DNA from: Spirochaetota bacterium
Lineage (GTDB): Bacteria; Spirochaetota; UBA4802; UBA5550
DNA: 64,000 nucleotides
Reading direction: 5' to 3'
Assembly (NCBI GenBank): GCA_022709405.1
Contig: JAKLIV010000002.1
Location: 5,700 to 69,699, forward strand
The position numbers and the translations under genes were made by a program. Below the pieces are notes generated by a model that did not search any database, was not told the origin of the DNA, and worked only from the letters and a program-made list of their open reading frames with translations. Below are positions 13,933-55,157 of the stretch, piece after piece. Every line of letters starts with the position of its first letter. Within the stretch, counting starts at the first letter, position 1.

Positions 13933-13944
13933 CCGGAGGAGTTT

Positions 13945-15125: not shown

Positions 15126-15228
15126 GTTTATTATTTTTACAAGCATGACTGTCAAGCAAATATTATTAATTTACTCTGAGCAATATACATCATCCAGGCA
15201 GCAATTATATCTTTGTAGATAACTTTTC

Positions 15229-32491: not shown

Positions 32492-32523
32492 GACAAAAAA
32501 GAGGCTGTCCGAAGACAGCCTAA
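32492..32523 (-). terminator. rho-independent terminator ending the hydrogenase operon transcript
   Basis: Stem aggctgtc-cgaa-gacagcct flanked by aaaaaag, which gives a U-run on the minus strand. Sits 90 bp downstream of the REC gene. Confidence 0.7.
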
Positions 32524-32610
32524 GTTACTTATTAAGAGGGATTGATTCCCCGGACGTATGCCGTCCAGAGAACAATTGGCATTACACAATACTATAAAAC
32601 GCTGTTGGCG

Positions 32611-33015
32611 TCACTTGACGATGGCTTTGACTTTTTCAAGCATCACATCGAGGTTGATGGGTTTCGTCAAAAAGTCATTAACCTTCGGCAAAAAGCTCTC
32701 TTCCTGGTTCAGGGAAAAACGGTTGTTCGTCACCTGGTTGATGGCGGTCAGGATTATGATGGGAACATCCTTGACTGCCTTGTATTTGGAAGAGTCCCTT
32801 TTATCGCGGATCTGGTAAACCGCTTCGAAACCTGCGGTATCCCGCTCCATCATGATGTCAAGAATCATGAGGTCTGGTTTTTCAGCGAGAAGCTTGCCGA
32901 GTCCTTCCTGTCCGCTGTATGCTTCGGCCACTTCGTATTTATTGGACCTGAGGACCTGCGCGATGGACTGCACAAGATCCTTGTCATCATCAACGATTAA
33001 AATCTTATTCCCCAT
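32611..33015 (-). CDS. single-domain CheY-like response regulator receiver with an insertion
   Basis: 134 aa. ILIVDDDKDL...DLMILDIMM...TKP. Last cistron of the hydrogenase operon. Confidence 0.8.
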   Translation of the reverse strand: MGNKILIVDDDKDLVQSIAQVLRSNKYEVAEAYSGQEGLGKLLAEKPDLMILDIMMERDTAGFEAVYQIRDKRDSSKYKAVKDVPIIILTAINQVTNNRFSLNQEESFLPKVNDFLTKPINLDVMLEKVKAIVK

Positions 33016-33113
33016 ATTAAAACTCCCTGTATTAATATCAAGATCGCATCATTGCTGATCGAATTCGCGGCGCATTCGGTGAAATCCGGCGAGCGCGCCG
33101 CGACAGACTCGAA

Positions 33114-33644
33114 TCAGTTCTTCAGCAATTCATAAATAACGTTTCTCTGCTCCCATGCCTTGTTTCTTTCGTACATGTCGATCGGGAATTCCATCTGCTT
33201 CAACTCGATCGGGGCCGCCTGTTTGGGAACGAGACCAAGGGCGAGCGCCACACCGTAAATGATCGCTTCCGGACGGGGAGGACATCCCGGGATGAAATAG
33301 TTTACCGGCACGGCCTTGTCTGCGCCTCCGGAAACATTGTAGGTATCGAACCAGCTGCCGCCGCCTGTGGCGCATGACCCGATGCCGAAAACGAGCTTGG
33401 GCTCGGGCATGGCGTCGTACGCTTTTTTGGCCAGGGCCAGTGTCGGCCTGGTCACTCCGCCCGAGATTAGCATGACATCAGCGTGCCTGGGTGAAGCGAC
33501 AAGCTTGATCCCGAACCGCTCGACATCGTAATACGGCGTCAGGACGTTCAATATCTCGATATCGCATCCGTTGCATGACCCTGAATTGCAGTGATACACC
33601 CAGAGCGAACGACCAAAAAATTTCTTAGCTAAATTGGACAACAT
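33114..33644 (-). CDS. group-4 [NiFe] hydrogenase small subunit (HycG/EchC/NuoB family)
   Basis: CNSGSCNGCD...GIGSCATGGG...PGCPPRP cluster-binding motifs. Confidence 0.85.
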   Translation of the reverse strand: MLSNLAKKFFGRSLWVYHCNSGSCNGCDIEILNVLTPYYDVERFGIKLVASPRHADVMLISGGVTRPTLALAKKAYDAMPEPKLVFGIGSCATGGGSWFDTYNVSGGADKAVPVNYFIPGCPPRPEAIIYGVALALGLVPKQAAPIELKQMEFPIDMYERNKAWEQRNVIYELLKN

Positions 33645-33654
33645 GACGTAACTC

Positions 33655-34194
33655 CTATAATTTTGTCGGTCTCTGATATTTTTCAGTTTCTTTCAGGACA
33701 TTCGGATCGAAATGCTCCGTTGTCTTGCGGATAAGAGCCCTTGCTTCGAGGCTGTCATACCGGTAGCCCCTGAGGTCGAGGCGCTCCAGGGCGTTCGTGT
33801 TTTCCATGTCATAGCACCTTCCGCACCTCTGGCAGGTGAGCATGAAAAGCTCGATCCTTTCGGTGATGTCCTCCCTGTCGCCTGTCGCATTTTCGAATTC
33901 CTGGCTCATCGTTATTGCCTTTTCCGGGCAGACGTCCGCGCAGCGGCCGCAGTAGGTGCAGCGCGAACCGTCGTAGAGCATGATACGCAGCTCCTGGCAA
34001 GTATCGCGGACGAGTATGCAGCGGGCCGAGCAGTGGTTCGAGCATGCTCCGCAGCCGACGCATTTATGGTGATCCCAGTGCGGTCTTCCCCTGAAATTCT
34101 CGGGAGCGGGATGCGGCTCGAACGGATATTTCAGAGTTACGACGCCGGGCTTTATTACCATGAGTACCTGTTTTACTTTACTGGTTAACCACAC
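33655..34194 (-). CDS. 2x[4Fe-4S] ferredoxin subunit (HycF/NuoI family)
   Basis: CVGCGACSNHC and CTYCGRCADVCP motifs. Confidence 0.8.
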   Translation of the reverse strand: MWLTSKVKQVLMVIKPGVVTLKYPFEPHPAPENFRGRPHWDHHKCVGCGACSNHCSARCILVRDTCQELRIMLYDGSRCTYCGRCADVCPEKAITMSQEFENATGDREDITERIELFMLTCQRCGRCYDMENTNALERLDLRGYRYDSLEARALIRKTTEHFDPNVLKETEKYQRPTKL

Positions 34195-34217
34195 GATATT
34201 ACTCCTTATCTATGAAA

Positions 34218-35120
34218 TTATATGCCATATACTGACAGGCCGACCGCACAGAGCGCAAGGACTATCAGCACCGAATAGAACTTGATCGCCTGATCTATCC
34301 TGAGCCTGGCGTTCGTCGAGCCGATCAGGGAGATAAATCCGAAAACGACGCCGATTTCGACGATCTGCACGGCGAGATTCACGATATAAATACCGGTATT
34401 CAGGAAAGGTATGAATACCATCACGAAAAGCGCCGCATAGAACATCTGCTTGAGCATCATGTAATATTTGAACAGTGCGTAATTGGGGCCGCTGTACTCG
34501 ATGAATGGTCCCTCGAGTATCTCAATTTCGGCCTCGCTTATGTCGAAAGGAGGACGCCCGACAAAGGCCTGCAGCGCCGCCAGGTAGACGACCAGCATCA
34601 GCGCCACCGACCATCCGTATCCGACCGAATTGATGCTGAACATGGTTATGTCGATCCCGAGGCTTTTCATCTTGACCGCGCCCATGATCAGGGTCATCGC
34701 CAGCACCGGCTCCACCATGATCATGGTGATCATTTCACGGCTTGCGCCGATCATCGCGTAAGTGTTCTTGCTCGAAAGCGCTCCGAGAAGGACCGCGATC
34801 CCCCCCAGCGTAAGCAGGTAGATGATCGTGATGATGTCGGCATACTGGGTCAGGTAATTCGCCTTGTTGGCCAGCGGGAAAAACGCTATGACCGACACGA
34901 TCGAGGCGAAAGCCATCATCGGCGCGAACTTGAATCCCCAGTTGTCCGCTGAATTGATCGTGGTCTTGCCCAGAAGCTTGAAAATGTCCATATACGGCTG
35001 ATATATGGGCGGCCCCTGGCGCGACTGGACCTTGGCGGTGATCTTTCTGATTATCCCCTCGAAAAGCGGGGCCAGACCGAGAAATACTAAAAGGTTAACG
35101 ATAATATATACTGCTTCCAT
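34218..35120 (-). CDS. membrane subunit HycD/EchB/NuoH family
   Basis: 300 aa polytopic membrane protein with QSRQGPPIYQPYMDIFKLLGK. Confidence 0.8.
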   Translation of the reverse strand: MEAVYIIVNLLVFLGLAPLFEGIIRKITAKVQSRQGPPIYQPYMDIFKLLGKTTINSADNWGFKFAPMMAFASIVSVIAFFPLANKANYLTQYADIITIIYLLTLGGIAVLLGALSSKNTYAMIGASREMITMIMVEPVLAMTLIMGAVKMKSLGIDITMFSINSVGYGWSVALMLVVYLAALQAFVGRPPFDISEAEIEILEGPFIEYSGPNYALFKYYMMLKQMFYAALFVMVFIPFLNTGIYIVNLAVQIVEIGVVFGFISLIGSTNARLRIDQAIKFYSVLIVLALCAVGLSVYGI

Positions 35121-35137
35121 AAGATACCTTCCCCTGC

Positions 35138-36805
35138 TTATGCTCTTCTTGACATTCTTTCCAGATCCCTCTGGTTCATCACATTGACCTTGCCTGATTT
35201 TATGTCCACGACCTGAACGCGGTCAGTACAGGAGAAACAGGGGTCAATACTTCCTAGAATTATCGGAAAATCGGCGAACTGATCGTTAAGGAGCATCGTC
35301 GGAACTCCCTGGAGGTTCGGATAGGTTGGGGCGCGGACTCTCCACCGGTCTGCCCTGTTTTCGTCGCCGGATATCACATAGTGCACCGATTCGCCCCTGG
35401 GCGCCTCGACATGGGATATCGCATGGCGTTGTGATTGTATGACATCATCCATTTCAGTGATGATCTTGCCCTCGGGCAGCTGATCGAGCGCCTGACGGAC
35501 GATCTTGATCGCTTCAAATATCTCGAGTATGCGGACGACGACCGTTCCCCAGACGTCATTGGTGTCGACGACCGGAACATCGAACTTGACCGCGTCGTAC
35601 GCGGCGTAGGGATGGTCCCTGCGCACGTCTATGTCGACTCCCCTCGCCCTGGCGGGAGGCCCGACTATGCTCCACTGGACGGCCTCTTCGTGGGTCATGT
35701 AACCGACGCCTTTGGTCCTCTTGTGTATTGTGGTGTCACCGATGATGGCCTTATGAACGACAATGCACTCTTCTTCGACTTTTTTAAGCACGCGGAGCAT
35801 ATCGTCCTTGAGCTCAGGAGTGATGTCCCTTCTGACACCGCCCACGACGATCATGCCGTATGTCTTCCTGTTTCCGGTCCATTTCTCGCAGAGCCACATG
35901 ATGTCCTCGCGGATCCTCCATGACTGCATGAAAACCGTGTCGAACCCGATCAGGTGGCCGGCGACGCCCAGCCAGAGGAGGTGGGAGTGCAGCCTTTCTA
36001 TCTCGAGCATGATCGTCCTGATGAATTCCGCCCTGCGGGAGATCTTGAGGTCAGCGACCATTTCAACGCACTGAGCATATGCCGTTGCATGCACCGATCC
36101 GCAGATACCGCAAATGCGCTCCGCGATGAACGGAACTTCATTGTAGCTGACCTGGGTCGTGCAGAGCTTTTCAATTCCGCGGTGAGTCATGAATCCGCGG
36201 TAGTCGCATCCCTTGATCGTTTCGCCGTCGACGAATATCGACCAGTGGTTGGGCTCATGCAGCGACGGATGGAAAGGTCCCACCGGAACTACCGAGCATC
36301 CTTCCGGGCACTCGTCCATCTGGTAAGCTACATTTTCCGCCGGAGGCGGAACCAGGTTGTAAGGGACTTCCTTCCGCAGGGGATGGATTCCCTCGGGCCA
36401 GTCGTCCGAGAGTACAAGCCTTTTGGGCTTGGGATGTCCCGTGAATTTCATCCCGAGCAGGTCCATGTATTCCCTTTCGGACCAGCCGGCATTGGGGACG
36501 TCCGGGGTGATGGAATCCATCACCGGGTCGTTTTCGGGCACCCAGGCCCTGACGCAGATAACTGTGCTGTCCTTGTCGAACGCGAAGGTATGTATCATAC
36601 CCAGCGTGTTGTCCCTCTTGGTGTTATCATAGCCTATGCCGACCAGATAACGGCCTCCCTGAGTGAACAGCTCCTTGCAAACCCCCTTGACGCCCTCTTT
36701 CTTGACGTCAACGAAGAGCCTGTCTTCCAGGGGGGACTCGAATTTGATGATATTGCCGCCGAATTTGCTTTTTAAAGTATCTTTCAATTGTTCTAAAGCT
36801 TTCAT
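35138..36805 (-). CDS. group-4 [NiFe] hydrogenase large subunit, fused NuoC-NuoD type (HycE-like)
   Basis: 555 aa. N-terminal NuoC-like domain. L1 motif ERICGICGSVH and L2 motif DPCFSCTDR are both intact. A roughly 26-aa C-terminal extension after L2 is available for protease processing. Confidence 0.85.
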   Translation of the reverse strand: MKALEQLKDTLKSKFGGNIIKFESPLEDRLFVDVKKEGVKGVCKELFTQGGRYLVGIGYDNTKRDNTLGMIHTFAFDKDSTVICVRAWVPENDPVMDSITPDVPNAGWSEREYMDLLGMKFTGHPKPKRLVLSDDWPEGIHPLRKEVPYNLVPPPAENVAYQMDECPEGCSVVPVGPFHPSLHEPNHWSIFVDGETIKGCDYRGFMTHRGIEKLCTTQVSYNEVPFIAERICGICGSVHATAYAQCVEMVADLKISRRAEFIRTIMLEIERLHSHLLWLGVAGHLIGFDTVFMQSWRIREDIMWLCEKWTGNRKTYGMIVVGGVRRDITPELKDDMLRVLKKVEEECIVVHKAIIGDTTIHKRTKGVGYMTHEEAVQWSIVGPPARARGVDIDVRRDHPYAAYDAVKFDVPVVDTNDVWGTVVVRILEIFEAIKIVRQALDQLPEGKIITEMDDVIQSQRHAISHVEAPRGESVHYVISGDENRADRWRVRAPTYPNLQGVPTMLLNDQFADFPIILGSIDPCFSCTDRVQVVDIKSGKVNVMNQRDLERMSRRA

Positions 36806-36841
36806 ATTCTACCCCTTGATAATTATATCCGTTTGAAGCAC

Positions 36842-38752
36842 CTATTTCTTGACGTTGCCGCCGGTCCACCAGAGGAAAGACTTCAATGCGGAGAACATAT
36901 TGCTTTCCTTGTATCTTGTCAGGTTGTGAAGATCCTGGTAGCCGCACAGCCAGGTATCGGCCTTGCGCTCGGTTGAACCAGCGGAATTTTTCAGAGCCCA
37001 GGCGATCAGGAACGCGACCGCGAAAACGACCACCATCACCACCGGAACGGCGACAGACGTGGCGATTCCGGACATGCCGGTCAGGCTTACGCCCATCGCG
37101 GTCGTATCAAGGTATTTGCTGAAATCGAAAGTCCTGAAAGTATGATAGAAAATCGATCCCTGCGACTTGCTGAATATATCGATAATTGTCGTGTAATAGA
37201 AGAAAGGAATCAGTCCCTGTACGATGCAGAGGATTGTAAGAACGGCCTTGGGAGCGATCATCGTCCCCGGAACCTCCTTGATCTCCTTCTTGATGTTCCA
37301 CTCCGCGCCTGACGCAGTGTAGGTCAAACCGAAGAATTTCACGTAGCAGGAGAGGGTTACCGCGCTGGTGAACAGGGCTATGATGCCGAAGACCACCAGA
37401 AAAAGCACCTCGCTTCCGGCGAGCAGGTTCGTTGAGATGATGGTCCACTTGCTCGCGAACCCGCTGAAAGGCGGCACGCCCGCGATCGACAGGGAGGCTA
37501 TGCCGGCGATGATTCCGCTTATCGGCATGACCTTGAGCAGACCGCCGAGCTTGTTCATGTCTTTCGTGCCAGTCGCGTACAGAACGCTGCCGGCCGAGAG
37601 GAACAGGAGTCCCTTGAATATCGCATGGTTGAGAACGTGGTATATAGCGCCGACGATCGCGATGAGCCCCATGAGCTTGACGAACTCGCTCTCGCTGTGG
37701 AACATCACGAGTGAAGAACCGACCGCCAGGACTATGTAACCTATCTGGCCTATCGAGCTGTACGCGAGAAGCCGCTTGATGTCGCTCTGTTTCATGGACT
37801 GCACGGTGCCGATGAACAGGGTGACCACGCCGAAAGTGGCGATCACGACGCCCCAGAACGTACCGTTGAAATGAGCGCCCTCGGTGTGGGGAACCATCCA
37901 GAAGAAGGTCCTGATGATGCCGTAGATGCCGGTCTTGATCATGACCCCGGAAAGCAGCGCGCTTATCGGCGACGGCGCTATCGAGTGGGCGTCAGGCAGC
38001 CACATCTGCCCGAAGGGGAATATGGCGGCCTTGAAGGCGAACCCGAGAAGGATCAGGCCGAACACGAAATACGTCATGACCGGTCCGGTTTCGCCGAGCT
38101 TGTAGGTCAGCTCGTGCACGGAATCGCCGAGGCCGGCGCCCTTGATAAGGAATCCTCCCACGACGACGAGGAGCCAGGCAAGCTCCATCAGGATGAGGTA
38201 CTTGTTGGCGCTCTTGACGTTCTCGGCCTTCTTGAATTCGAACTTTACCAGGAAGTACGATGAAATGGTCATCATCTGCCAGGCTATCGTGAATCCGACC
38301 GAAAGGTCATCGAGAGTGACAAGACCGATCATTCCGCATATGAACAGCGGAAAGTTGACATAAAAGGGCTTCATGCTGTAGTCGGGATAATGCTCCATGT
38401 ACTGCATGGAGTAGAATGCGCTCATTATCGCCATGAAGATGATAAGCCCGATAAAGAAGGCCGAGAAGCTGTCCAGCAGCATGAAGAGCTTGAAGCTCCC
38501 TATGGAGATGGCGATGTTTGACATATCCATCATCCCGGTCAGGCTTAGAAAACCCAGGTCGAAGACCGAGCTTTCGTCCCCGAAAATCGACGCATAGCTT
38601 ATGTTGAGTAATATGATTCCCGCTATAGCAACCAGCGCAAAGTTAAGCCATCCCGCGAGCTTCCGGTTGTCCGAAAAGAACGGGACGACAATGGCTGACA
38701 GCAGCAGTACGGCCATTGCGGTTAGTAAATTCCCATAAATATCTGCACTCAT
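36842..38752 (-). CDS. antiporter-like membrane subunit (HycC/HyfB/NuoL family)
   Basis: Start at MSADIYGNLL (38752) with RBS aaggag and an ATGA overlap with the hycI stop. Polytopic, with the NuoL/MnhA fold pattern. The ORF track's 38776 start would overlap hycI by 28 nt. Confidence 0.75.
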   Translation of the reverse strand: MSADIYGNLLTAMAVLLLSAIVVPFFSDNRKLAGWLNFALVAIAGIILLNISYASIFGDESSVFDLGFLSLTGMMDMSNIAISIGSFKLFMLLDSFSAFFIGLIIFMAIMSAFYSMQYMEHYPDYSMKPFYVNFPLFICGMIGLVTLDDLSVGFTIAWQMMTISSYFLVKFEFKKAENVKSANKYLILMELAWLLVVVGGFLIKGAGLGDSVHELTYKLGETGPVMTYFVFGLILLGFAFKAAIFPFGQMWLPDAHSIAPSPISALLSGVMIKTGIYGIIRTFFWMVPHTEGAHFNGTFWGVVIATFGVVTLFIGTVQSMKQSDIKRLLAYSSIGQIGYIVLAVGSSLVMFHSESEFVKLMGLIAIVGAIYHVLNHAIFKGLLFLSAGSVLYATGTKDMNKLGGLLKVMPISGIIAGIASLSIAGVPPFSGFASKWTIISTNLLAGSEVLFLVVFGIIALFTSAVTLSCYVKFFGLTYTASGAEWNIKKEIKEVPGTMIAPKAVLTILCIVQGLIPFFYYTTIIDIFSKSQGSIFYHTFRTFDFSKYLDTTAMGVSLTGMSGIATSVAVPVVMVVVFAVAFLIAWALKNSAGSTERKADTWLCGYQDLHNLTRYKESNMFSALKSFLWWTGGNVKK

Positions 38753-39249
38753 TGATATACTCCTTTTTGGCTGCAATTTATGGATTTAAGTAATAAATCC
38801 GTTACAGTATCCGCGCTTTTCTTGACATCGTCTGAAAGCCCGATTCCGAAATCTATGTCATCGGCGATGATGCCCAGCAGATACGTGCTTTTGTTGTTTT
38901 CTTCCAGTATTTTACCGGAGATGCTCAGGGAGAGCTTATGGGTGGAAAACATCCCCTCGAACATCCCCATATCGTTGATTCTGCCGAAGATGACCGAGCC
39001 GCGTTCTCCCTCCGCCTGGACCGCGTCAACGATTATGACGTTTTCACAGTCCATTCCGGCGATCTTGAACACATAGCTCTCGATTACGTCCTCGACATTC
39101 AGAACAGTCAATGTTTCAGATTCAACGGCTTCTTTGAGCCGGTCGACGATATACAGGCCGACGGCATCGTCGGTTTTATAATAGTTGCCCATACCGACTA
39201 TGCATGTCCTCGCGCCCATTATTTCGTCTATTTGAGAAATAAAATCCAT
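38749..39249 (-). CDS. hycI: hydrogenase maturation endopeptidase (HycI/HybD family)
   Basis: Start MDFISQIDEIMGARTCIVGMGNYYKTDDAVGLYIVDRL at 39249. TGATG overlap with the upstream stop. The ORF track's long N-terminal extension is Arg/His-rich and non-genic. Confidence 0.75.
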   Translation of the reverse strand: MDFISQIDEIMGARTCIVGMGNYYKTDDAVGLYIVDRLKEAVESETLTVLNVEDVIESYVFKIAGMDCENVIIVDAVQAEGERGSVIFGRINDMGMFEGMFSTHKLSLSISGKILEENNKSTYLLGIIADDIDFGIGLSDDVKKSADTVTDLLLKSINCSQKGVYQ

Positions 39250-40091
39250 CAGATCTGCTCTCCGAGAGTCTTGATCTGCTTGTATGTGTAGACCGGGCCG
39301 TCGGTGCACACCAGCGTTCTGCCGATCGCGCAGTGCTGGCATTTGCCGATGCCGCATTTCATGTGCCGCTCGAGCGTGGAGATAATGTTCTCCTCTCTCA
39401 TTCCGCGGTTGACCAGGTCTTTGATGACCGAGTTGAACATGATCGGAGGCCCGCAAACGAATGCGACCGAATTGTCAACGGGAACTTTCGCCTTCTCGAC
39501 CAGGGTGTTGACGAATCCAACCTCGTATTTCCATCCCGGCGCCGGACTGTCTATCGTGGTGTATATCTCAACGCCCTCGATCTTCCGCCATTCGTCGATG
39601 TTGTAATTGTACATGAGGTCCTGGGGAGTCCTGGCCCCGTAAAGGACGATCACCCTTCCGAATTCATTCCTGTGCTGCAGGACATGAACGATCGATGACC
39701 GGAGCGGAATGATTCCGATACCGCCGGCGACATATATGACGTTCTTGCCCTTGATTTCATCGAAGGGGAAGCCGTTGCCGAATGGTCCGCGAATACCGAC
39801 CTTGTCGCCGGGCTGCAGCGAGTGAAGGACCTTGGTCACTTTTCCCGCCGCGCGCACCGAGATGTGAAAACGGTCGTTCTCGGGGCTGGGAGGCAGCGAC
39901 ACGGCAAATTCGCCCGCGCCGAAGATCGTGCACATGATGAACTGGCCCGATTTGATCTTGAAATTCTTGGCCACTTCGGGGTTCTCGAATTCGAGATAGA
40001 ACGTGCTTGTGTCTTCTATCTCTTTCTTGATTTCCTTGATTACCGCTACTTCAGGTACCGTTATGACTTTATATTCACTCATAATACCCAC
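39249..40091 (-). CDS. FAD/NAD(P)-binding oxidoreductase with C-terminal [2Fe-2S] (AsrB/HydG/PyrK family)
   Basis: 280 aa. VIYVAGGIGIIPLRS NAD fold. C-terminal MKCGIGKCQHCAIGRTLVCTDGPVY cluster motif. Confidence 0.75.
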   Translation of the reverse strand: MGIMSEYKVITVPEVAVIKEIKKEIEDTSTFYLEFENPEVAKNFKIKSGQFIMCTIFGAGEFAVSLPPSPENDRFHISVRAAGKVTKVLHSLQPGDKVGIRGPFGNGFPFDEIKGKNVIYVAGGIGIIPLRSSIVHVLQHRNEFGRVIVLYGARTPQDLMYNYNIDEWRKIEGVEIYTTIDSPAPGWKYEVGFVNTLVEKAKVPVDNSVAFVCGPPIMFNSVIKDLVNRGMREENIISTLERHMKCGIGKCQHCAIGRTLVCTDGPVYTYKQIKTLGEQI

Positions 40092-41162
40092 CTATTCGTT
40101 AATTTCTCTTTCAGTAATTTCTCTCCTGACATAAGTCACGACATTGGGCAGACCGATGTCGCCGGGGCACACCCACGCGCAACGCCCGCAGCCGACGCAG
40201 CCCGGCCGAAGGTATTTTTTCGACTGTGAATAGGAGAGTTTGCAGAAGAAGCGCTTGTTGCGCCTGTCTTCAATCGGTTTGCGGGGGTTATGATCGCCGG
40301 CCATCCTTGTGTACCCTTCGAAGGAGCAGGAATCCCATTCGCGCATCCTGTCGACCGCGGTGTCGGGCTTGTTGAAGTCCTCGATGTTGAAGCACGAGCA
40401 GGACGGGCATACGAACGAGCAGGCGCCGCACTCGAAGCACTGATCGCCGATGAACTCCCATACCTGGGGCTTGATGAAGCCGGTCGTGATCCTGTTCATC
40501 ACGCGTGAGATCCAGGCCTTGTTTTCGACCGCCTCTTTCTCGAATGAATCGAGGGACTTGTCGACGACCTTCACTTTTTCGGCCGCATGGGCGGCCTCGG
40601 ACTTCTGCAGGCCCATTTTCTCGCAGAGTTCCTTGCCCTTGTCGCTGCCGACTTCGATTAAATACGAATCGCCGATGTCGGTCAGGTTAAGGTCGTATCC
40701 CTCTTTCGCCGAGGGGCCGCTGTCGGTGCAAGCGCAGAAGCACTGCGCGAAAGGCTTTGTGCAGGTGTTGGTCACTATGAACATCTGCTTGCGATGAAGC
40801 AGGTACACGTCGTCGACGAATTCCTGTCCCAGAAAAAACCTGTCGAGGCACTGTATGCCGGCCAGATCGCATGAACGCAGGCCGAATATGGCCTTTGCCT
40901 GAGGGACGACGACCATCTTTATGTCGACGTTTTTGCTGTTCCTGTCGTATTTGTATCCCAGTATCTTCTCGATTTGGGGAAACACGACGCTCTTCGGGGG
41001 AAGCGCGGGGATCGGGGCGTTCAGGTCAATATCGTTGACGCTGTCGACTTTCGTCAGGAAAGCCTGCCCGGATTCCTTCTCGACCACCGGACCGTAAACC
41101 GCATAGGATTTCTCCAGCTCTTGCGCCAGTTTTAATACTTCGTTCTTTTTTATTAAAAACAT
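40092..41162 (-). CDS. Fe-S subunit of the AsrA/HydB family (two 4Fe-4S motifs)
   Basis: 356 aa. CFECGACSFVCPSC and CVGCGRCAWVCP. Its stop abuts the start of the HydG-like gene. Confidence 0.7.
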   Translation of the reverse strand: MFLIKKNEVLKLAQELEKSYAVYGPVVEKESGQAFLTKVDSVNDIDLNAPIPALPPKSVVFPQIEKILGYKYDRNSKNVDIKMVVVPQAKAIFGLRSCDLAGIQCLDRFFLGQEFVDDVYLLHRKQMFIVTNTCTKPFAQCFCACTDSGPSAKEGYDLNLTDIGDSYLIEVGSDKGKELCEKMGLQKSEAAHAAEKVKVVDKSLDSFEKEAVENKAWISRVMNRITTGFIKPQVWEFIGDQCFECGACSFVCPSCSCFNIEDFNKPDTAVDRMREWDSCSFEGYTRMAGDHNPRKPIEDRRNKRFFCKLSYSQSKKYLRPGCVGCGRCAWVCPGDIGLPNVVTYVRREITEREINE

Positions 41163-41165
41163 AGC

Positions 41166-43172
41166 TTATACCTTCTCAATTCTTACTGGGATTATTGCGT
41201 CTTCGCCTTGTTCTAATAATTCTTTATGCTCCATGAGGAATTCCGAAATCATGTCCCTGATGAAGTACGGAACATACGCCGACTCGGATTTCACATCCGG
41301 TGTCACTTTTACCGTGACCTTCATGGAGCCGTAAGGAGAAACCACTTTAACCGGCCATTTGTCGCGCACCTGGATGCTTTTCGCGTCCTCGGGGCTTATT
41401 TCGACATAGCCTTTCGGATACAGAAGCAGGGTCGCATTGTATTCCCTCATGGGGATGAAGGTCCTTCTCATGAGGTTGTTCTGGTGCCAGAAATGCTGGG
41501 CCTTTCCGGTCATCATGAGATAGGGGAACTCGGTGTTCTTCTCGGCCCCCTTGAAATTCGCCGAAACCGACACGAACTTGATCTTGCCCTTGGCGTCGCC
41601 CGCGTTGAATCTCGGGCAGCCCTGCGGGTACTTGTCGTTGCACGGCCACTGGATTCCGCCGATGCCCTTGAATTTGTCGTACTTGACGCCGGAATAGTTC
41701 GGGGTAAGTGACGCTATCTCGGCCATTACCGCGGCCGGAGAATCGTAATTCCACTTCGCCCCGGCTTTGGCTGCAACCATGGAATAAACCTGCCAGCCCG
41801 CCTGGATGCCCTTGACCGGCTCGACTTTCCTGTGCGAAAGCTGTATGCGCCTGTCGGTGCTGGTGAACGTGCCGTCGGATTCCACATAGGTTCCGATCGG
41901 TATCACGACGTCTGCAAGTTCGGTGAACGGGTTGTTGAACGCGCCGAAATAGACGACGAAATCGAGGTCATCGATCGCCTTTTGCTGGCGGACGATCAGC
42001 TCGTCATGGTCGACCACGACAAGGCCTTTGAGCTTCTTGGCCGCGAGCAGGTCGTACACGTCTTTACCGTTTTCGACCGGAAGGTCCGCGCCCCACGCCT
42101 TGCCGAATTTCTTGGCCGTTTCGGCATCCTTGATGCTCTGGAATCCGGTCAGCAGATCGGGAGCGACGCCCATATCGTAGGTTCCCTGGAGGTTCGCGAT
42201 CCCGGCGATCGGGTTGACGCCGCATCCTTCCTTGCCGATTTTACCGGCAACGACGAAAAGATTGTATATGTAGCTGATGGTGTCCTCGTCGAGGCCCGAT
42301 ATTCCCGACGAAAAGAAAGCCATCGCCGTTTTGGCTTCAGACAGATTCTTGACGACCGCGGCTATTTGCTGGGCGCTCACGCCGGTAAGGGACTCGATGT
42401 CCCCGTCGTTCAACGATCCGAGCGAGTTGGCGAATCCTTCGAAGCCCTCGGTGTATTTCTGGACGAAATCCGCATCGTGAAGGTTCTTTTCGATAAGCCC
42501 CTTGGCCATGGCCGCGAGCAGAATCTTCTTGGAGCCCGGCTTGCACTGCAGATGGATATCGCTGAGCTTCGCAATTTGCGACTTGCGGCTGCAGATCGTA
42601 ACAACGGTCGAGCCGTTCATCGCCGCCATGTGAATCTCACTTCCGATGATCGGGTTCTGCTTCGTTATGTCGGTGCCGACCACAAGGATGAACTCGGCCT
42701 TCTTGATCTCTTCGATCGATCCGAGCATCCCCGCCATGCCCGTGCCCTTGTACAGGACGTTGAGGCTTTCCCTCTGTCCGGATTCGGACTGAATACTGAC
42801 GTTGTTCGTTTTGAAAACCGACCTGGCGAGCTTCATGAAGAGATAGTTTTCTTCATTTGAGGAGCGGGGCGAAGCGAGGAAGCCGAGCTCTTCGGACGGC
42901 TTCTTGATCCCTTTCAATTTTTCAACCGCGAAGGAAACGGCCTCGTCGTAGCTCGCGCTTTCGAGCTTGCCGTTCTTTCTGATCAGGGGGGTGGTCAACC
43001 GATCATCGGTTCTGATCAGTTCATGGATGTGCCATCCCCTTACACAGAGCCTTCCCTTGCTGACAGGATGATTACGGGAAGGAAAAACGCCGCTAATTTT
43101 CCCGTCTTCAACATTCAGCAGATGGCCGCACCCTGTGCCGCAAAAATTACAAATCCCTGCCTTATAATTCAT
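41166..43172 (-). CDS. molybdopterin-oxidoreductase (MopB) subunit collinear with formate dehydrogenase H (FdhF), but apparently lacking the Sec/Cys-His active-site pair
   Basis: 668 aa. N-terminal CNFCGTGCG...GRLCVRGW 4Fe-4S motif. ...KTNNVSIQSESGQRESLNVL aligns with FdhF TNNVDCCARVUHGPSVAGL, with Gly and Gln at the U140 and H141 positions. No in-frame TGA. Confidence 0.7.
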   Translation of the reverse strand: MNYKAGICNFCGTGCGHLLNVEDGKISGVFPSRNHPVSKGRLCVRGWHIHELIRTDDRLTTPLIRKNGKLESASYDEAVSFAVEKLKGIKKPSEELGFLASPRSSNEENYLFMKLARSVFKTNNVSIQSESGQRESLNVLYKGTGMAGMLGSIEEIKKAEFILVVGTDITKQNPIIGSEIHMAAMNGSTVVTICSRKSQIAKLSDIHLQCKPGSKKILLAAMAKGLIEKNLHDADFVQKYTEGFEGFANSLGSLNDGDIESLTGVSAQQIAAVVKNLSEAKTAMAFFSSGISGLDEDTISYIYNLFVVAGKIGKEGCGVNPIAGIANLQGTYDMGVAPDLLTGFQSIKDAETAKKFGKAWGADLPVENGKDVYDLLAAKKLKGLVVVDHDELIVRQQKAIDDLDFVVYFGAFNNPFTELADVVIPIGTYVESDGTFTSTDRRIQLSHRKVEPVKGIQAGWQVYSMVAAKAGAKWNYDSPAAVMAEIASLTPNYSGVKYDKFKGIGGIQWPCNDKYPQGCPRFNAGDAKGKIKFVSVSANFKGAEKNTEFPYLMMTGKAQHFWHQNNLMRRTFIPMREYNATLLLYPKGYVEISPEDAKSIQVRDKWPVKVVSPYGSMKVTVKVTPDVKSESAYVPYFIRDMISEFLMEHKELLEQGEDAIIPVRIEKV

Positions 43173-44107
43173 ACTGTAAACTCCTCGACCTTTTTTTTAG
43201 GGGCCCGATTGAAAAGGCTGTTCCCTGAATGTCACTTAAGGTGTTTCTCCCCCCGCCGCTGAGCAGTGGCGGGAGGGGGAGGAACATCTTAAATTTTACA
43301 GCAGACTAACCGCTGTACATGTTTTTCGAGTTTGTTAATTATATAGCAGATTCCCGGCAGTTTTGTAAATAGGGGAATAACCTTAATTTACCTGAGTGGA
43401 ACAACCTATACATAGTATATTTTATGTATATTTTTATTATTGTTCCCATGGGTGAGGATTATTGGAAATGAGAAGGAAAGGCTTGCAGGGCTGGCCGCCC
43501 TGCACCCGCTCAGAGTAAAACCTGCCAGAATATGATTGCTCAGAGCAAAAATGACTTATAACCGGCTAATTATAGTTGTTACGTCTTCAGTGCACTGCGT
43601 CCGCTCAGCGCGGCCCTTTGAGCGTGATTTATTCCATGGAATTATTTTTAGAGGCTGCGGAGGTCCATCCTGTCTAATCCTCGCCCGTCGGCTACATCCA
43701 TGTAGCCTCCACTTAAGCTTACGATATTCTCTGAGCGAACCACGCCCGCGGCCACGCTTCAAGCGGACTCCGTGACGCAGGCAGCGCTTTCAACGCCGGT
43801 GCTTGCTCAGAGCAAGATTTCGGCCACGATCTTCTGTACTTACTCATAACGCGGCCATGGATGGCCGCGTTGGGCGAGGCCATCAGGATGATGATCCGAG
43901 CCTTACACTGTTGATTTACTGATACTGGCGTGACTGAAAATTGCGGATGCTTATAATTGATGTTTGTTTGATGATTATCTGTTACTGGAGTGAAGCCTCC
44001 CCGGCGTATAAGGGGCAGCCTCCGCCGGCGTTTGAGGCGGCGGCTTTTTGCTCCTCTTTTTCGCCGGTTGAAAAAGAGGCAAACCCTCCCCTGTCAGGGG
44101 GACAATC

Positions 44108-44142
44108 CCGGCCCGGTACTCCGGGCCAAACCCCCGCGCCGG
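44108..44142. repeat. hairpin repeat copy 1 (CCGGCCCGGTACTCCGGGCCAAACCCCCGCGCCGG)
   Basis: 7-bp stem GGCCCGG/CCGGGCC with a 4-nt loop. Related copies at 45114-45151 and 45189-45214. Confidence 0.6.
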
Positions 44143-44443
44143 TTATCGGCGCATACCTGCCTTCGAGTACCGAAATTTTCTGAAAGGGTGTGCCAAAAGA
44201 ACATTATAACTGTATGATACGATACATAGGAAATTCCTCTGGCAAAAATCCGCTTCAAGTGACTTAATGCATTTTTCTTGTGCTGAGCATGTCGAAGCAT
44301 CGGAACAATTTTTACCTAACCCGAATGTGTATCTATTGACAAAAAAAGCCCCGGATGCAAGGTCTTTTTTCAAATTTTTGCATCAAATCCTCCCTTTTTC
44401 TGACTACTATATGATTCCCATTCAGGCATACAGGAGGCGGCAC

Positions 44444-44992
44444 ATGGCAATAGCACACTTGAACCCGGTAATAGACTCGATCAGCGGCAGCGTGGGGAAG
44501 CTCGTGTTCTACGAGCGGTACGGCAAAACGGTCATGCGCGCATACATCATACCGCCCAATCCCCGCACCGCGGCCCAGCAGGCCAACCGCTCCAGGTTCA
44601 GGCAGGCCATGGCCTCATGGCGGCAATTGCCGGATTACGAGAAAGATTCCTACAACCGTAGGGCCAGGAAGCTTTCCATGACCGGCCACAACCTGTATAT
44701 CTCGCGGTACATGAAGGGAACATCCGTTGCGGAACGCGTGCAGACTGGGATTGCTCCGGCGTACAGGGGGGATAATGACGGCGGATTGTTTCCTGATTCT
44801 TACTCCCCCTCTCCTTTCAGGAGAGGGGGCCGGGGGGTGAGGTCAGCAACAACAAACCCTGCTCAGAGCAAGGTTTCAGATACGCTTCACGGCCTTTACC
44901 GCTCCGTCTCCTCTTCGTCATCACCGGCATACGATCTTTTCCTGCCCCGGTCAGCAGCTGTCACGCACGCCATGCCTCCCGGATCCGATTGA
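44444..44992 (+). CDS. hypothetical protein (doubtful; strong hairpins and palindrome motifs lie inside the ORF)
   Basis: Perfect RBS aggagg 7 nt before the ATG at 44444. N-terminal 110 aa look protein-like. The C-terminal half is Ser/Gly-rich low complexity and coincides with a 10-bp-stem hairpin (44805-44829) and a TGCTCAGAGCAAG palindrome (44860-44873). Confidence 0.3.
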   Translation: MAIAHLNPVIDSISGSVGKLVFYERYGKTVMRAYIIPPNPRTAAQQANRSRFRQAMASWRQLPDYEKDSYNRRARKLSMTGHNLYISRYMKGTSVAERVQTGIAPAYRGDNDGGLFPDSYSPSPFRRGGRGVRSATTNPAQSKVSDTLHGLYRSVSSSSSPAYDLFLPRSAAVTHAMPPGSD

Positions 44993-47988: not shown

Positions 47989-50184
47989 TCATGCTCCCGA
48001 CTGTCCGCTCTTGCTCTTGTCGATCACCCACTGAACGGCATACTGCACCATCTCGGATGCGCTTTCCAGGTTCAGCTTGTTTTTAATGCGCTCGCGGTAA
48101 TTCTCCACGGTCTTCACGCTTATATTGAGCTTCTCCGCGATGTGCCTGTTGCCCAGGCCGTTCCCGATGTACTGGAACACCTCGAACTCCCTCATGGTGA
48201 GGCATTCCAGGGACGACATCGTCTCCCTTCGGCCCTCGTACGGCATGCGGCTGATAAGCTCGGCCGTGACCCTGGCGCTCAGGAACTGTTTGCCCGCCAG
48301 CACGGTGCGAATCGCGGTGACCACGGTCTGAGGGGCCTCCTGCTTCATCACGTATCCCCTGGCCCCGGCCCTGAGCGCCCTCTCCGCATAGATCATCTCG
48401 TCGTAGATCGAAAGCACGAGCACGGGCAGCCCTGCGTAGCGCGCCCTGAGCGCCTTGATCAGGTCAAGACCGCTCGCGCCGTCTATTGATATGTCCACGA
48501 TGATAAGGTGCGGATTCAGCCTCGCCACCTGGCGCACCGCCTCGTCGGCGTTCGTCGCCTCGCCGCACACGAGAAGGTCCTCTTCCCGGTTGATGATCTG
48601 CGCGAGCCCCTGGCGCACGATCGGATGGTCATCGACCACGAGAATCCCGGCCTTGCGGTCAGAGGTGTTCACCATGTATTTCTTCATGTCGCTTTCCGAG
48701 ATATCGGGCCGCCTGGAGCCTTCATGCTTGCGCAGATTGCAGGTGATGACAGTTCCGCCGCCGGCGTTGCGCTCGATAGAGAAGGCCGCGCCGATGATCC
48801 ATGAACGGTACCGCATGATCCGTATCCCGACCCCGCTGCTTTCCTCGAAAGAGTCCGGAAGGCCCTCCCCGTCGTCGGTGATCTTCATCGTGATCATATT
48901 TTCGCCCGATGTCATTGTTATGATCACGTTCCCGGCCTTGCCGTGCACGACGGCGTTCTCCACCGCCTCCCTGGCGATGTAGTAGAAATTCGAGGCCTCG
49001 AGATCGTCGATCCGTCCGAGATCTTCATCCAGATTGAGCAGGCACTTGACCCTGCCCTTTTTCTCGAACTCGAGGCGAAGCTCTTCGAACGCGGCATATA
49101 GACCGCCCGACGCCATGTCCACCGGGCAAAGGTCGCGCGCGAGGCCCCTGGTCTGGGTCATGGCGTCATGAATAAGATTGATTATCTCCTCCATGCCGGC
49201 GGCCTCTTCCGGATTTTTCTCCTTGAGCTTGAGCCGGAGTATTTCGCTCTTGAACACGAGCCCCGCCAGGTTCTGTCCCAGCCTTTCATGAAGGTCCTGC
49301 CCGATTTTGTGGCGCTCCATCTCTGAACTGCTCAGTATCATCCTTTCGAGGCGTTTGCGCTCGGTCATGTCGATTCCGACGAAAAACACGAAATCAAGCG
49401 ACTCGTCCTTGCGGAAAAACGGCCGCGCGTGCCATTCGACCAGGCGCTCCTCCCCCGACCTGGTCAGCACCTTGTTCTCGATGACCATCTCCTTTCTGCT
49501 TCTTTTAAGGGCCTCGAAGCTGTGAACGGCCGCATCACGTTCGGCGGGCGGTATGATCTTCGATACGTAATCCCCGCCGGAGACCTCCCCGATCTGGTAG
49601 CCCAGGGCCTCGAGAAACGAACGGTTCATCGTGATTACCGATCCCTTTTCGTCCAGCGCTATGTAGTAGGCCGGCGATGCGTCCTCCAGGCTCCTGATGA
49701 AATCCCGCTCCTTGATGAGCTTCTGCTCGGACTGCACCAGCGCGATCGTCCTCTCTCTCACCGCTACTTCGAGCAGGTCCTTTTCCCTGCGCAGCAGGTC
49801 CTCGGCGTTCTTTATCCTGAGCATTACCTTGATTTGCGCGACAAGTTCGGCCTCGTCCACCGGCTTGGTCAGAAACGCGTCAGCCCCGGTCTCGAGTCCC
49901 CTGATCCTGCTGCTGACGTCTGTCTTTATTGCTGTCAGCAGGATAATGGGTATGTGCGAAGTCGCGGGCTCGGCCTTGAGAATCGTGCACACTTCGAAGC
50001 CGTCCATGCCGGGCATTTTAATGTCGAGTATGATCACGTCTGGAAGGTTCGCCGACGCCTTCTCGATCCCCTCGGGCCCCGACTGGGCGGTCAGCACCGA
50101 GCATCCCGGCATGAAGCTCTTGAGCAGGGCCGATATGGTTATCAGGTTGTCCTGGTTGTCGTCGATCGCGAGAATCGTGCTCAT
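47989..50184 (-). CDS. fused REC-PAS-histidine kinase (HisKA_3/NarX-LiaS type)-HATPase-REC-LuxR HTH protein (kinase and NarL-type regulator in one polypeptide)
   Basis: 731 aa. N-terminal receiver (ILAIDDNQDNL...ILDIKMPGMDG). PAS. H-box ERHKIGQDLHERLGQNLAGL. ATPase G-boxes. Second receiver (ILVVDDHPIVRQGL...). C-terminal LTMREFEVFQYIGNGLGNRHIAEKLNISVKTVENYR LuxR-type HTH. Confidence 0.8.
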   Translation of the reverse strand: MSTILAIDDNQDNLITISALLKSFMPGCSVLTAQSGPEGIEKASANLPDVIILDIKMPGMDGFEVCTILKAEPATSHIPIILLTAIKTDVSSRIRGLETGADAFLTKPVDEAELVAQIKVMLRIKNAEDLLRREKDLLEVAVRERTIALVQSEQKLIKERDFIRSLEDASPAYYIALDEKGSVITMNRSFLEALGYQIGEVSGGDYVSKIIPPAERDAAVHSFEALKRSRKEMVIENKVLTRSGEERLVEWHARPFFRKDESLDFVFFVGIDMTERKRLERMILSSSEMERHKIGQDLHERLGQNLAGLVFKSEILRLKLKEKNPEEAAGMEEIINLIHDAMTQTRGLARDLCPVDMASGGLYAAFEELRLEFEKKGRVKCLLNLDEDLGRIDDLEASNFYYIAREAVENAVVHGKAGNVIITMTSGENMITMKITDDGEGLPDSFEESSGVGIRIMRYRSWIIGAAFSIERNAGGGTVITCNLRKHEGSRRPDISESDMKKYMVNTSDRKAGILVVDDHPIVRQGLAQIINREEDLLVCGEATNADEAVRQVARLNPHLIIVDISIDGASGLDLIKALRARYAGLPVLVLSIYDEMIYAERALRAGARGYVMKQEAPQTVVTAIRTVLAGKQFLSARVTAELISRMPYEGRRETMSSLECLTMREFEVFQYIGNGLGNRHIAEKLNISVKTVENYRERIKNKLNLESASEMVQYAVQWVIDKSKSGQSGA

Positions 50185-53141: not shown

Positions 53142-53158
53142 TGAGTATCGCAGACGAA

Positions 53159-53656
53159 TTATTTTTTCTGTGCTTCCAGGGCGAGTTTCACTATGTAGGA
53201 GATATTATAGAAAATGCTTATCCCGCCTATAAACCGCTCCTTGACCATACCGAGCGGCAGCCTGTCAATATCAAACTTGATTTCATCGATTATCCTCATT
53301 ACCGAGGTGTGAATCGACAGCACGTGCTCGAACCCGAACTCCCCGACGCACGCCTGAAGCGCCGGATTTACCAGTGAAACGTCCTTGATTATGGACCTCA
53401 GACATTCTTTTATGTGCCGGTCACGGTCGACAAGGATTTTTTCAAGGATGCAGACGCGCGCGATTTCGTATCCCAGCAGCACTTCCTGGCTGTTTCTATG
53501 GCTGTATGAGTCGGGATAGCGGTTGAAATACGCTTCGCCGAGCCTGAACATTTCATCGGTATCGAACATGAATTCCCCGTTCAGGGAGACGATCTTTTCC
53601 CTGAACTCGTCGAAGTTGCCTGTTTCGATGAAAATCCGGGCCGGCGACTGGCTCAT
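53159..53656 (-). CDS. hypothetical cytoplasmic protein embedded in the signalling island
   Basis: Start MSQSPARIF at 53656 with RBS aggaga. No recognisable motif. Confidence 0.4.
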   Translation of the reverse strand: MSQSPARIFIETGNFDEFREKIVSLNGEFMFDTDEMFRLGEAYFNRYPDSYSHRNSQEVLLGYEIARVCILEKILVDRDRHIKECLRSIIKDVSLVNPALQACVGEFGFEHVLSIHTSVMRIIDEIKFDIDRLPLGMVKERFIGGISIFYNISYIVKLALEAQKK

Positions 53657-53672
53657 GCTTTCTCCTGTTTCA

Positions 53673-54059
53673 TCAGGCGCCGCCCCTGCGGTCCAGCGCT
53701 TCACGAACCGCGCCTACCAGCAGTTCCGGGTCGATCGGCTTTTTCAGAAATCCGTCGAACCCGATTTTAGAGAAATCATACCTGTTGTCGACCGCATCGG
53801 CGATGCTGCTTATCAGGATAACCGTAACGCGTGGGTATCTGGCCTTTATTTCGCGCACCAGGTTCACTCCCGTGTCGATCGACTCCATCATCATGTCGCA
53901 CAGGACGAGATCGGGCTCCCTTGCGGTCAAAAAACCGAGCGCTTCGTCATAGCCGAGCGCCCCGGCTGTTTCGTATCCGGATGCGTCGAGTACGGCCCGG
54001 GTCGTCATTACAATGACCGGGTCGTCGTCGATTATTAATATCAGCCTGCGCGCATTCAT
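53673..54059 (-). CDS. single-domain CheY-like response regulator receiver
   Basis: 128 aa. LILIIDDDPVIV...LVLCDMMM...LKKP. Confidence 0.8.
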   Translation of the reverse strand: MNARRLILIIDDDPVIVMTTRAVLDASGYETAGALGYDEALGFLTAREPDLVLCDMMMESIDTGVNLVREIKARYPRVTVILISSIADAVDNRYDFSKIGFDGFLKKPIDPELLVGAVREALDRRGGA

Positions 54060-54062
54060 GTC

Positions 54063-55133: not shown

Positions 55134-55157
55134 TATAGCGACTCCAGGTTATTATTT

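Follow-up and report, generated by a model that had tools for sequence, protein, structure and literature searches.

What does a formate hydrogenlyase become when its formate dehydrogenase subunit has lost the residues for formate chemistry? This question is raised by a ten-gene operon at positions 32611–43172 of the minus strand within a 64,000-nucleotide stretch of contig JAKLIV010000002.1 from a Spirochaetota bacterium (assembly GCA_022709405.1), a stretch referred to here as the window. The operon combines an FdhF-like protein, two subunits related to sulfite reductase and sulfhydrogenase proteins (AsrA-like and AsrB-like), and a Hyc-type [NiFe] hydrogenase with its own maturation protease, and ends in a gene for a response regulator. 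Its product is proposed, with a probability of about one half, to be an NAD(P)H:H+ oxidoreductase of the Hyc type that is probably ion-coupled and uses its degenerate FdhF-like subunit as an iron–sulfur or structural adaptor. Under this proposal, the operon would specify a single membrane complex on the formate hydrogenlyase (FHL, Hyc) chassis, with the formate input exchanged for a pyridine-nucleotide input.

The FdhF-like subunit

The first gene of the operon (41166–43172) encodes a protein of 668 aa with the Molybdop_Fe4S4, Molybdopterin, and Molydop_binding domains. Its N-terminal [4Fe-4S] site is intact, but it has neither the molybdenum (Mo) ligand nor the catalytic residues. Aligned by HMMER with E. 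coli FdhH (1aa6) and with an F420-dependent formate dehydrogenase (FDH; 9t1s), it has Gly132 at the position of the Mo-ligating selenocysteine or cysteine (Sec/Cys140), Gln133 at His141, Ala323 at Arg333, and Arg45 at Lys44. A residue census of 80 sequences, made up of the window protein and 79 relatives, extends these replacements to the whole family. The Mo-ligand position is Gly in 77 members and Trp in three, and never Cys or Sec; the Arg333 position holds Thr, Ala, Pro, Ser, or Val, and never Arg; and Lys44, which lies between the pterin and the cluster, is replaced by Arg in 80/80. The His141 position is less uniform (His in 67, Gln in 12, Tyr in one), and the window copy is among those without His. 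At the N-terminal [4Fe-4S] site, all four Cys are kept without exception. Since the equivalents of Sec/Cys140, Arg333, and Lys44 are gone from every sequence, FDH chemistry is not expected; judged by its residues, the FdhF-like subunit is not a formate dehydrogenase, and the complex is no formate hydrogenlyase in the enzymatic sense. The first-pass annotation of this DNA had allowed for formate as a substrate, a suggestion that these replacements, together with the missing His141 of the window copy, contradict.

That the operon encodes a true formate hydrogenlyase, perhaps with an NAD(P) link as well, as both that annotation and the usual labeling of metagenome-assembled genomes (MAGs) have it, is accordingly a very remote prospect. 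The similarity to FdhF/FdhA does run over the full length of the protein (479 bits to TIGR01591 and 299 bits to 1aa6), and metagenome annotation routinely labels such clusters “formate hydrogenlyase”, an Aminicenantes bin annotated with a “formate hydrogenlyase complex” being one example (PMC5459899), but the TIGR01591 score lies under the cut-off of 666 bits, and no member of the family retains the three catalytic positions.

A wider comparison, in which 1.84 billion representative proteins were searched and selected matches aligned, sets the family apart from true FDHs. The true FDH representatives all carry the Cys-His pair, the Arg, and the PLRGQNNVQG and TGR..H.H motifs; the nearest relatives outside the family (33–38% identity) are other degenerate FdhF-like proteins. 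The 96 positions compared are those conserved in 12 or more of 13 true FDHs. Per sequence, the family keeps the FDH residue at 59% of them, compared with 91% in the true FDHs (scored by leave-one-out), 73% in the other degenerate proteins, and 38% in the cofactor-less E. coli NuoG. The charged or polar FDH residues lost in the family comprise His181, D429 (now Gly), D478 (Gly or Ala), R581 (Lys or Gln), H655 (Phe), and K679 (Ala or Ser), and the Asp202 position varies among Asp, Ser, and Cys. Apart from the HycI protease, no soluble subunit is less conserved than the FdhF-like protein, whose mean identity is 56%, against 67–72% for the AsrA-like, AsrB-like, and HycF proteins. Cys317 was considered as a compensating Mo ligand and rejected: it is invariant in 20 sequences, but across all 80 the position is Cys in 60, Ser in 18, and Gly in two.

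The bis(pyranopterin guanine dinucleotide) (bisPGD) center of arsenite oxidase works without a protein ligand. This counts in favor of an alternative, considered unlikely here, in which the FdhF-like protein is still an enzyme, with a ligand-less Mo- or tungsten-bisPGD or a new site, and forms a three-way redox complex that couples an unidentified substrate with NAD(P)+/NAD(P)H and H+/H2. Such coupling, possibly by confurcation or bifurcation, has been proposed for related group 4b clusters, for which AlphaFold3 models gave a three-branched Fe-S network (PMC13582414). The loss or variability of charged and polar FDH residues (D202, D429, D478, R581, H655, and K679), the Trp found at the ligand position in three members, and the comparatively low conservation of the subunit speak against an active site of this kind. 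Against these points stand the strong invariance, within the family, of motifs lining the cofactor and active-site region of true FDHs, the retention of His141 in 84% of members, and a retention of FDH positions (0.59) clearly above that of NuoG (0.38). A further point against the three-way complex is that no recognized bifurcating flavin site is evident, the HydG-like (AsrB-like) subunit appearing to be of the simple PyrK/NfnA type.

The sulfhydrogenase-related subunits

The next two genes encode a HydB/ShyB/AsrA-like Fe-S protein of 356 aa (40092–41162) and a HydG/AsrB-like protein of 280 aa (39249–40091), which binds FAD, NAD(P), and a [2Fe-2S] cluster according to its FAD_binding_6, NAD_binding_1, and DHODB_Fe-S_bind domains. 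Among solved structures, the closest to the pair are the beta and gamma subunits of Pyrococcus furiosus sulfhydrogenase I (soluble hydrogenase I, SHI), with 141 bits to 9nez_B for the AsrA-like protein and 205 bits to 9nez_C for the AsrB-like protein. The kinship with AsrAB/HydBG suggested at first pass is thereby one of true homology. The AsrA-like protein matches PF17179 (Fer4_22) at 96.5 bits and carries 17 Cys without a substitution among the aligned residues of 77 sequences, a number that suffices for three or four clusters. Among 73 AsrB-like sequences, little or no variation occurs in the GGIGxIP and CGPP motifs or at the four [2Fe-2S] Cys, and the RxH[LI][ST] flavin motif is conserved, two of its positions less strictly.

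Profile comparison gave a divided answer to the earlier assignment. The top NCBIfam models are indeed ShyB/HydB/AsrA for the beta-like and HydG/ShyC/AsrB for the gamma-like protein, but the scores fall far under the equivalog cut-offs (160 against 690, 152 against 750, and 146 against 323 bits for the former; 210 against 650, 198 against 600, and 190 against 289 bits for the latter). On these scores, the two proteins are homologues of SHI beta and gamma, and not their equivalogs or orthologues. The SHI subunits as best solved relatives, the conserved FAD, NAD(P), and [2Fe-2S] motifs, and the 17 Cys together argue for an NAD(P)H module. Neither an AsrC siroheme subunit nor a group 3b alpha/delta pair was found in the operon or its annotated neighbors (10 kb downstream and 15 kb upstream), where all hydrogenase subunits are of the group 4 type.

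Two more distant FdhF-like proteins, P0249 (locus L084) and P0246 (locus L085), have 33–36% identity and are likewise devoid of the Cys-His pair and Arg333. An AsrA-like gene follows both, joined in L085 by an AsrB-like gene; the contigs of L084 and L085 end too soon to show any hydrogenase genes. Because distant FdhF-like proteins also precede AsrA-like genes, the FdhF-like/AsrA-like/AsrB-like module is wider than the operon family.

The hydrogenase core and membrane arm

The remaining structural genes specify the hydrogenase itself. In order of transcription they encode a HycI-type hydrogenase maturation endopeptidase of 166 aa (38749–39249), a HycC/HyfB-like antiporter-type membrane subunit of 636 aa (36842–38752), a HycE-like [NiFe] large subunit of 555 aa with fused NuoC and NuoD parts (35138–36805), a HycD/NuoH-like membrane subunit of 300 aa (34218–35120), a HycF-like Fe-S subunit of 179 aa (33655–34194), and a HycG/NuoB-like small subunit of 176 aa (33114–33644). 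HycI was identified with Pfam and NCBIfam, and HycC, HycD, and HycG with Pfam, NCBIfam, and BLASTP. BLASTP identity to the E. coli proteins is 40% over the full length for HycE, 50% for HycG, 36% for HycF, 33% for HycD, and 26% for HycC. The best structural match of HycE is 7z0s_E of E. coli FHL (410 bits), with P. furiosus MbhL at 249 bits. Its Ni-Fe motifs are intact (L1, RICGICGSVH, at 230–239; L2, DPCFSCTDR, at 521–529), and 26 residues beyond L2 form a C-terminal extension of the kind removed by HycI. In 61 orthologues, the L1 and L2 Ni-Fe ligands and the HycG Cys are invariant, as are the twelve Cys of HycF across the family. The invariant ligands and Cys, the C-terminal extension of HycE, and the presence of hycI in the operon point to a working hydrogenase, and by sequence the hydrogenase part is intact and Hyc-type.

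The earlier description of a Hyc-type core with a fused, motif-complete large subunit and a single antiporter-like subunit is thus upheld, and so is the absence of HycB: E. coli HycB has no match among the operon proteins at E <= 1e-3, and a HycH homologue is likewise missing. The membrane arm consists of one Proton_antipo_M protein and one NADHdh protein, and the operon contains no extra ferredoxin. When the HycC-like protein is aligned to E. coli NuoM, the glutamate of transmembrane helix (TM) 5, E144, is replaced by Gln in 62/62 members, within a WQMM sequence. The lysines K234 and K265 (TM7 and TM8) are kept, and the position of E407 (TM12) is Lys, as in NuoN.

Conservation of the operon as one unit

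The ten co-directional minus-strand genes reported at first pass were all recovered by the list of open reading frames (ORFs) together with Pfam and NCBIfam profiles, and this gene content is a direct observation, as are the motif status described above and the synteny described below. The three nucleotides between the FdhF-like and AsrA-like genes and the lack of any spacer between the AsrA-like and AsrB-like genes are followed by two overlaps, of the asrB-like stop with the hycI start (TGATG) and of the hycI stop with the hycC start (ATGA). This places hycI in mid-operon, as had been described. The junctions from hycC to hycG have spacers of 36, 17, 23, and 10 nt in transcription order. The tight spacing attributed to the cluster therefore holds for these overlaps and spacers of 0–36 nt, but not for the last gene, since the spacer between hycG and the receiver gene is 98 nt, in place of 40 or less, and contains a weak promoter-like match. 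Promoters or terminators that would split the operon were sought and rejected: matches are no commoner than in shuffled sequences, and none inside the operon is strong. The cluster behaves as one unit, in agreement with its initial reading as a single system.

Both ends of the unit are marked. Downstream, an intrinsic-terminator-like hairpin followed by a T run was located by a terminator scan at 32502–32521 on the minus strand, where a terminator had been described. Upstream, the leader at 43173–43335 folds at -58 kcal/mol (z = -4.2), which confirms a structured leader, and RNA folding shows a long hairpin at 43234–43294 (minus strand) that is kept only in the closest relative, L001. An Rfam E-value scan of 43100–44300 for a riboswitch or known RNA gave chance-level matches only.

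To place the operon among its relatives, one genome per species was scanned. A relative of the FdhF-like protein is encoded in 198 genomes, of which 80 loci were kept, and the ten window proteins were compared with these loci by tblastn. The complete set of ten was recovered in 52 of the 80 loci, 50 of them with the order of the window, so the synteny search proposed at first pass returned the full gene order many times over. Most of the remaining loci reach a contig edge or lack one gene. Four loci have a variant order, and of these only L032 and L049 hold all ten genes, arranged as hycC-hycD-FdhF-like-AsrA-like-AsrB-like-hycI-hycE-hycF-hycG-receiver. In L049 (Thermodesulfobacteriota), the three genes of the module and hycI are thereby placed between hycD and hycE. 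Carriers are mostly Spirochaetota MAGs, some of them auto-labeled Leptospirales; Aminicenantes/Acidobacteriota form the second large group, and a few are labeled Thermodesulfobacteriota, “delta proteobacterium”, or Eubacteriales. Identity to the window proteins ranges from 44 to 83% for the FdhF-like protein and from 75 to 94% for HycG, the closest FdhF-like homologue (83%) coming from a Spirochaetota MAG. A search with the AsrA-like protein for more distant contexts returned, among the 120 matches listed, only members of the same family. Conservation of this extent is far beyond chance and argues that the ten genes are one functional unit. The occurrence of all ten in 52/80 loci across phyla, the start/stop overlaps, and the gene placement in L049 further suggest one complex.

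Ech-type hydrogenases accept ferredoxin directly at their NuoI-like subunit. The operon might, by analogy, specify two enzymes that are merely co-expressed, HycCDEFG as a ferredoxin-dependent, Ech-like hydrogenase and the FdhF-like, HydB-like, and HydG-like proteins as a separate, soluble, NAD(P)H-linked oxidoreductase. The distant P0246 and P0249, which precede AsrA-like genes (in one case with an AsrB-like gene), would then be instances of the three genes as a module of their own. This explanation is rated improbable, more so than a three-way redox complex, although far less so than a true formate hydrogenlyase. In none of the 80 loci do the three genes occur apart from the hydrogenase genes; the rearranged variant has them between hycD and hycI-hycE; and the overlaps run from the asrB-like gene into hycI and hycC. 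The Hyc core, moreover, needs an Fe-S connector, which is HycB in E. coli, and only the HydB-like protein is encoded here to provide one.

Proposed mechanism

The preferred reading, an NAD(P)H-fed Hyc-type complex, can be stated as a path of electrons. The FAD of the HydG/AsrB-like subunit would oxidize NAD(P)H, and the electrons would move by way of the [2Fe-2S] cluster of the same subunit to the HydB/AsrA-like subunit, a multi-cluster protein that would occupy the place of HycB in the E. coli complex. From there, HycF and HycG would relay them to HycE, at whose Ni-Fe site protons would be reduced; the reverse path, from H2 to NAD(P)+, is also conceivable. The FdhF-like subunit would keep its fold and its single [4Fe-4S] cluster and sit on the HydB-like subunit as an adaptor, with no part in formate oxidation, a role that would parallel those of NuoG in complex I and of OmeA in Dehalococcoides.

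The NAD(P)H/H2 couple is near equilibrium at low H2. For this reason, the HycC/HycD arm could either drive H2 release or conserve energy during uptake, by tying ion movement to the small difference in free energy that separates NAD(P)H from H2. Release of H2 from NAD(P)H would be aided by ion influx or be feasible only at low H2, and H2 uptake would lead to ion export, by which energy would be conserved. A bolder version of the proposal is put forward tentatively and with less confidence: the complex would be a reversible, ion-gradient-coupled membrane [NiFe] hydrogenase that uses pyridine nucleotides directly, through an input assembled independently of NuoEFG from SHI-beta/gamma and a degenerate FDH.

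Several considerations weigh against this mechanism. Under standard conditions, the reaction from NAD(P)H to H2 is uphill. Use of NAD(P)H by the AsrB-like subunit is suggested by homology and motifs, at scores far below the equivalog level. NuoM, NuoN, and E. coli HycC share the TM5 Glu for which the HycC-like proteins have Gln, and this exchange may change or abolish ion coupling. In the FdhF-like protein, many positions around the old cofactor site are invariant within the family, among them N173-P174, N327/G330/D333, R441/Q444, and a WHQNN motif; given these positions and the His141 found in 67/80, the subunit may have a ligand or a new activity. Finally, we infer the subunit contacts, which belong with these adverse points, from sequence, as we do the direction of the reaction, the nucleotide specificity, and the ion coupling.

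Regulation and promoter region

The last gene of the operon (32611–33015) encodes a CheY-like response regulator of 134 aa with PF00072 as its sole domain, which agrees with the earlier view of a receiver-only regulator as the last cistron. Of the 60 loci that extend as far as hycG, 59 have the receiver gene after it. The 63 orthologues all keep D9, D10, D53, and K118, with Thr or Ser at T90, a pattern which argues that this is a working phospho-acceptor; the protein is predicted to be one without an output domain.

Other signaling genes are found on the minus strand 5–14 kb upstream of the operon, in a block at 47989–57113 that is syntenic with the operon elsewhere. A sCache/HAMP histidine kinase (55158–57113) has an orthologue that immediately follows the receiver gene in 36 loci and is likely the cognate kinase of the receiver, a pairing deduced from this gene order. 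A hybrid regulator of 731 aa (47989–50184) contains two receivers, a PAS domain, HisKA_3 and HATPase_c, and a GerE-type DNA-binding domain; in 22 Spirochaetota loci its orthologue precedes the FdhF-like gene by 1.9–7.2 kb, with 18 of them inside 3 kb, and it is a candidate transcriptional regulator of the operon. The block also holds a receiver-kinase protein, a hybrid kinase of 986 aa, and a receiver of 128 aa (53675–54059) that is below the 150-aa cut-off of the ORF list. Since orthologues of the signaling genes flank the operon in many genomes, the block is probably its dedicated regulatory system. Expression would then be under a two-component relay consisting of the Cache-domain kinase, the CheY-like receiver, and the GerE-type hybrid regulator, although this wiring is one that we infer.

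Within the same block, a helical protein of 165 aa from no known family is encoded at 53159–53656 (minus strand). Its orthologue lies on the same strand upstream of the FdhF-like gene in 46 loci and is adjacent (within 1.1 kb) in 25, mostly of Aminicenantes/Acidobacteriota. The AlphaFold2 model is all-helical, with a predicted local distance difference test score of 91, and a word-indexed protein search gave seven homologues. Identification as an Hpt protein, as HycH, or as a member of a known family was rejected, with no match in Pfam (even at E <= 10) or NCBIfam, and a Foldseek search against the PDB for a fold relative gave a best E of 0.1 and nothing convincing.

The promoter-proximal sequence contains the motif TTCCCCTATTTACAA at 43363–43377 on the minus strand, which overlaps a -35-like TTTACA (43364–43369) and is accompanied by a -10-like TATATA (43340–43345). 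The motif occurs at the same position upstream of the FdhF-like gene in 24 Spirochaetota loci, which accounts for 24 of the 27 matches across all loci, and a ATAGGGGAATTCCCC palindrome is usually found about 20 bp upstream of it; in the window, this distal palindrome is degenerate. From its position, the layout around TTCCCCTATTTACAA may function as the promoter, and its GGGGAATTCCCC / TTCCCCTA sites are putative binding sites of the GerE-type regulator. The intergenic region at 43173–44266 is unusually long, about 1.1 kb, and contains several GC-rich hairpins. A near-palindrome, TTGCTCTGAGCAA, gave nine strand-matches at up to two mismatches, against 1.4 expected, with sites at 43536–43548, 43803–43815, 44859–44871, and 15171–15183; two exact copies lie within the 1.1-kb intergenic region upstream of the operon.

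Genomic surroundings

The immediate neighbors of the operon are unrelated to it, with genes for thiamine biosynthesis and a glycosyltransferase downstream and for hydrolases upstream. The next gene upstream (44267–44992) encodes a protein of 241 aa without a Pfam match. By Pfam, no hyp or molybdopterin-biosynthesis genes were found among the window ORFs of at least 150 aa, a few of which were matchless and below which smaller ORFs were not scanned. Elsewhere in the window, at 5971–7710 (minus strand) and 12139–15159, are genes for electron-transfer flavoprotein alpha and beta, a CoA-transferase-like gene, and a gene of the nitronate monooxygenase family (PF03060, NMO), which fit an anaerobic fermentative lifestyle.

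Biological significance

To our knowledge, no membrane-bound, potentially energy-coupled hydrogenase fed by NAD(P)H has been characterized. If the proposal is true, it bears on how NAD(P)H is re-oxidized against H2 in fermenters and syntrophs, which would dispose of NAD(P)H as H2 at the cost of membrane potential. It would also offer a living parallel to the step from an FHL-like ancestor to complex I, in which NuoG likewise carries a dead molybdopterin domain, and the architecture itself invites comparison when the origin of the input module of complex I is considered. Should the FdhF-like subunit have no activity, fluxes from formate to H2 have been mis-assigned for Spirochaetota and Aminicenantes in digesters, sediments, and aquifers. 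From a practical point of view, the ten-gene version, with one antiporter-like subunit and its own protease, is more tractable for expression and cryo-electron microscopy than the larger group 4b versions.

Comparison with known systems

The general architecture has already been noticed in silico, and the operon is an uncharacterized variant of the FHL/group 4 family. The novelty first claimed for the combination of an FdhF-like protein, AsrA/B-like proteins, and a group 4 hydrogenase was thus overstated, given two precedents (PMC6349859 and PMC13582414). Features not found described in the literature searched are the compact Hyc-type form, the spread across phyla, the linked two-component system, and the invariant Glu-to-Gln replacement; nor was a biochemical characterization of such FdhF-like and SHI-beta/gamma hydrogenase clusters found there.

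The closest precedent is an in silico study dated 3 September 2026, according to which the Cys/Sec ligand is missing from roughly half the Fdh subunits of group 4b clusters, and the ligand-less clusters carry homologues of SHI-beta and SHI-gamma (PMC13582414). From the AlphaFold3 models mentioned above, its authors suggest confurcation or bifurcation, leaving the substrate unidentified, and mention neither Spirochaetota nor response regulators. A ligand-less Fdh-like protein and SHI-beta/gamma beside a group 4 [NiFe] hydrogenase are common to both sets of clusters, and the same gene association with one Fe-S network lends independent support to an NAD(P)H-fed complex. Those clusters, likened here by content and not by HydDB phylogeny, differ in having several antiporter subunits, several ferredoxin subunits, and HyfE/HyfC-like subunits, whereas the window family has only HycC and HycD, no extra ferredoxin, and hycI and a CheY-like gene within the operon. 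The second precedent is an “enigmatic” group 4 hydrogenase region of Saganbacteria RX5A, whose function was left undetermined (Matheus Carnevali et al. 2019; PMC6349859, Suppl. Note 5). It shares an unclassifiable FdhH-like protein with one [4Fe-4S] domain, asrA-like and asrB-like genes, and a membrane group 4 hydrogenase; compared by description only, it differs in being of the Mrp-Mbh type, with two Mrp antiporters and a CooF-like protein.

Among characterized enzymes, E. coli FHL-1 (FdhH and HycBCDEFG; group 4a; 7Z0S/7Z0T) shares homologues of HycC, HycD, HycE, HycF, and HycG at 26–50% identity, the NuoCD-fused large subunit, the single antiporter-like subunit, the HycI-type C-terminal extension, and an FdhF-fold subunit with one [4Fe-4S] cluster. 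In contrast to FHL-1, the window operon has no HycB or HycH, its FdhF-like protein is without Sec/Cys140, Arg333, and Lys44, Gln replaces the TM5 Glu of HycC, and SHI-beta/gamma-like subunits and a receiver gene are added. P. furiosus SHI (group 3b; 9NEZ) and AsrA/AsrB share the domain sets and the Cys, FAD, and NAD(P) motifs of the operon pair, which stands beside a membrane group 4 core instead of a soluble group 3b alpha-delta dimer and has no AsrC. NuoG and OmeA (DET0187), the latter an FDH-like protein without activity that bridges a hydrogenase in Dehalococcoides (PMC5736913), both share with the FdhF-like subunit an FDH-like fold, a retained Fe-S cluster, a lost or altered Mo ligand, and a place beside a hydrogenase-type module. 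However, NuoG carries a fused Fe-S domain at its N-terminus and has NuoEF as partners, and OmeA, a periplasmic protein with Ser at the ligand position, is associated with Hup and a dehalogenase, whereas the window protein is a free-standing, cytoplasmic FdhF-type subunit with Gly at the ligand position.

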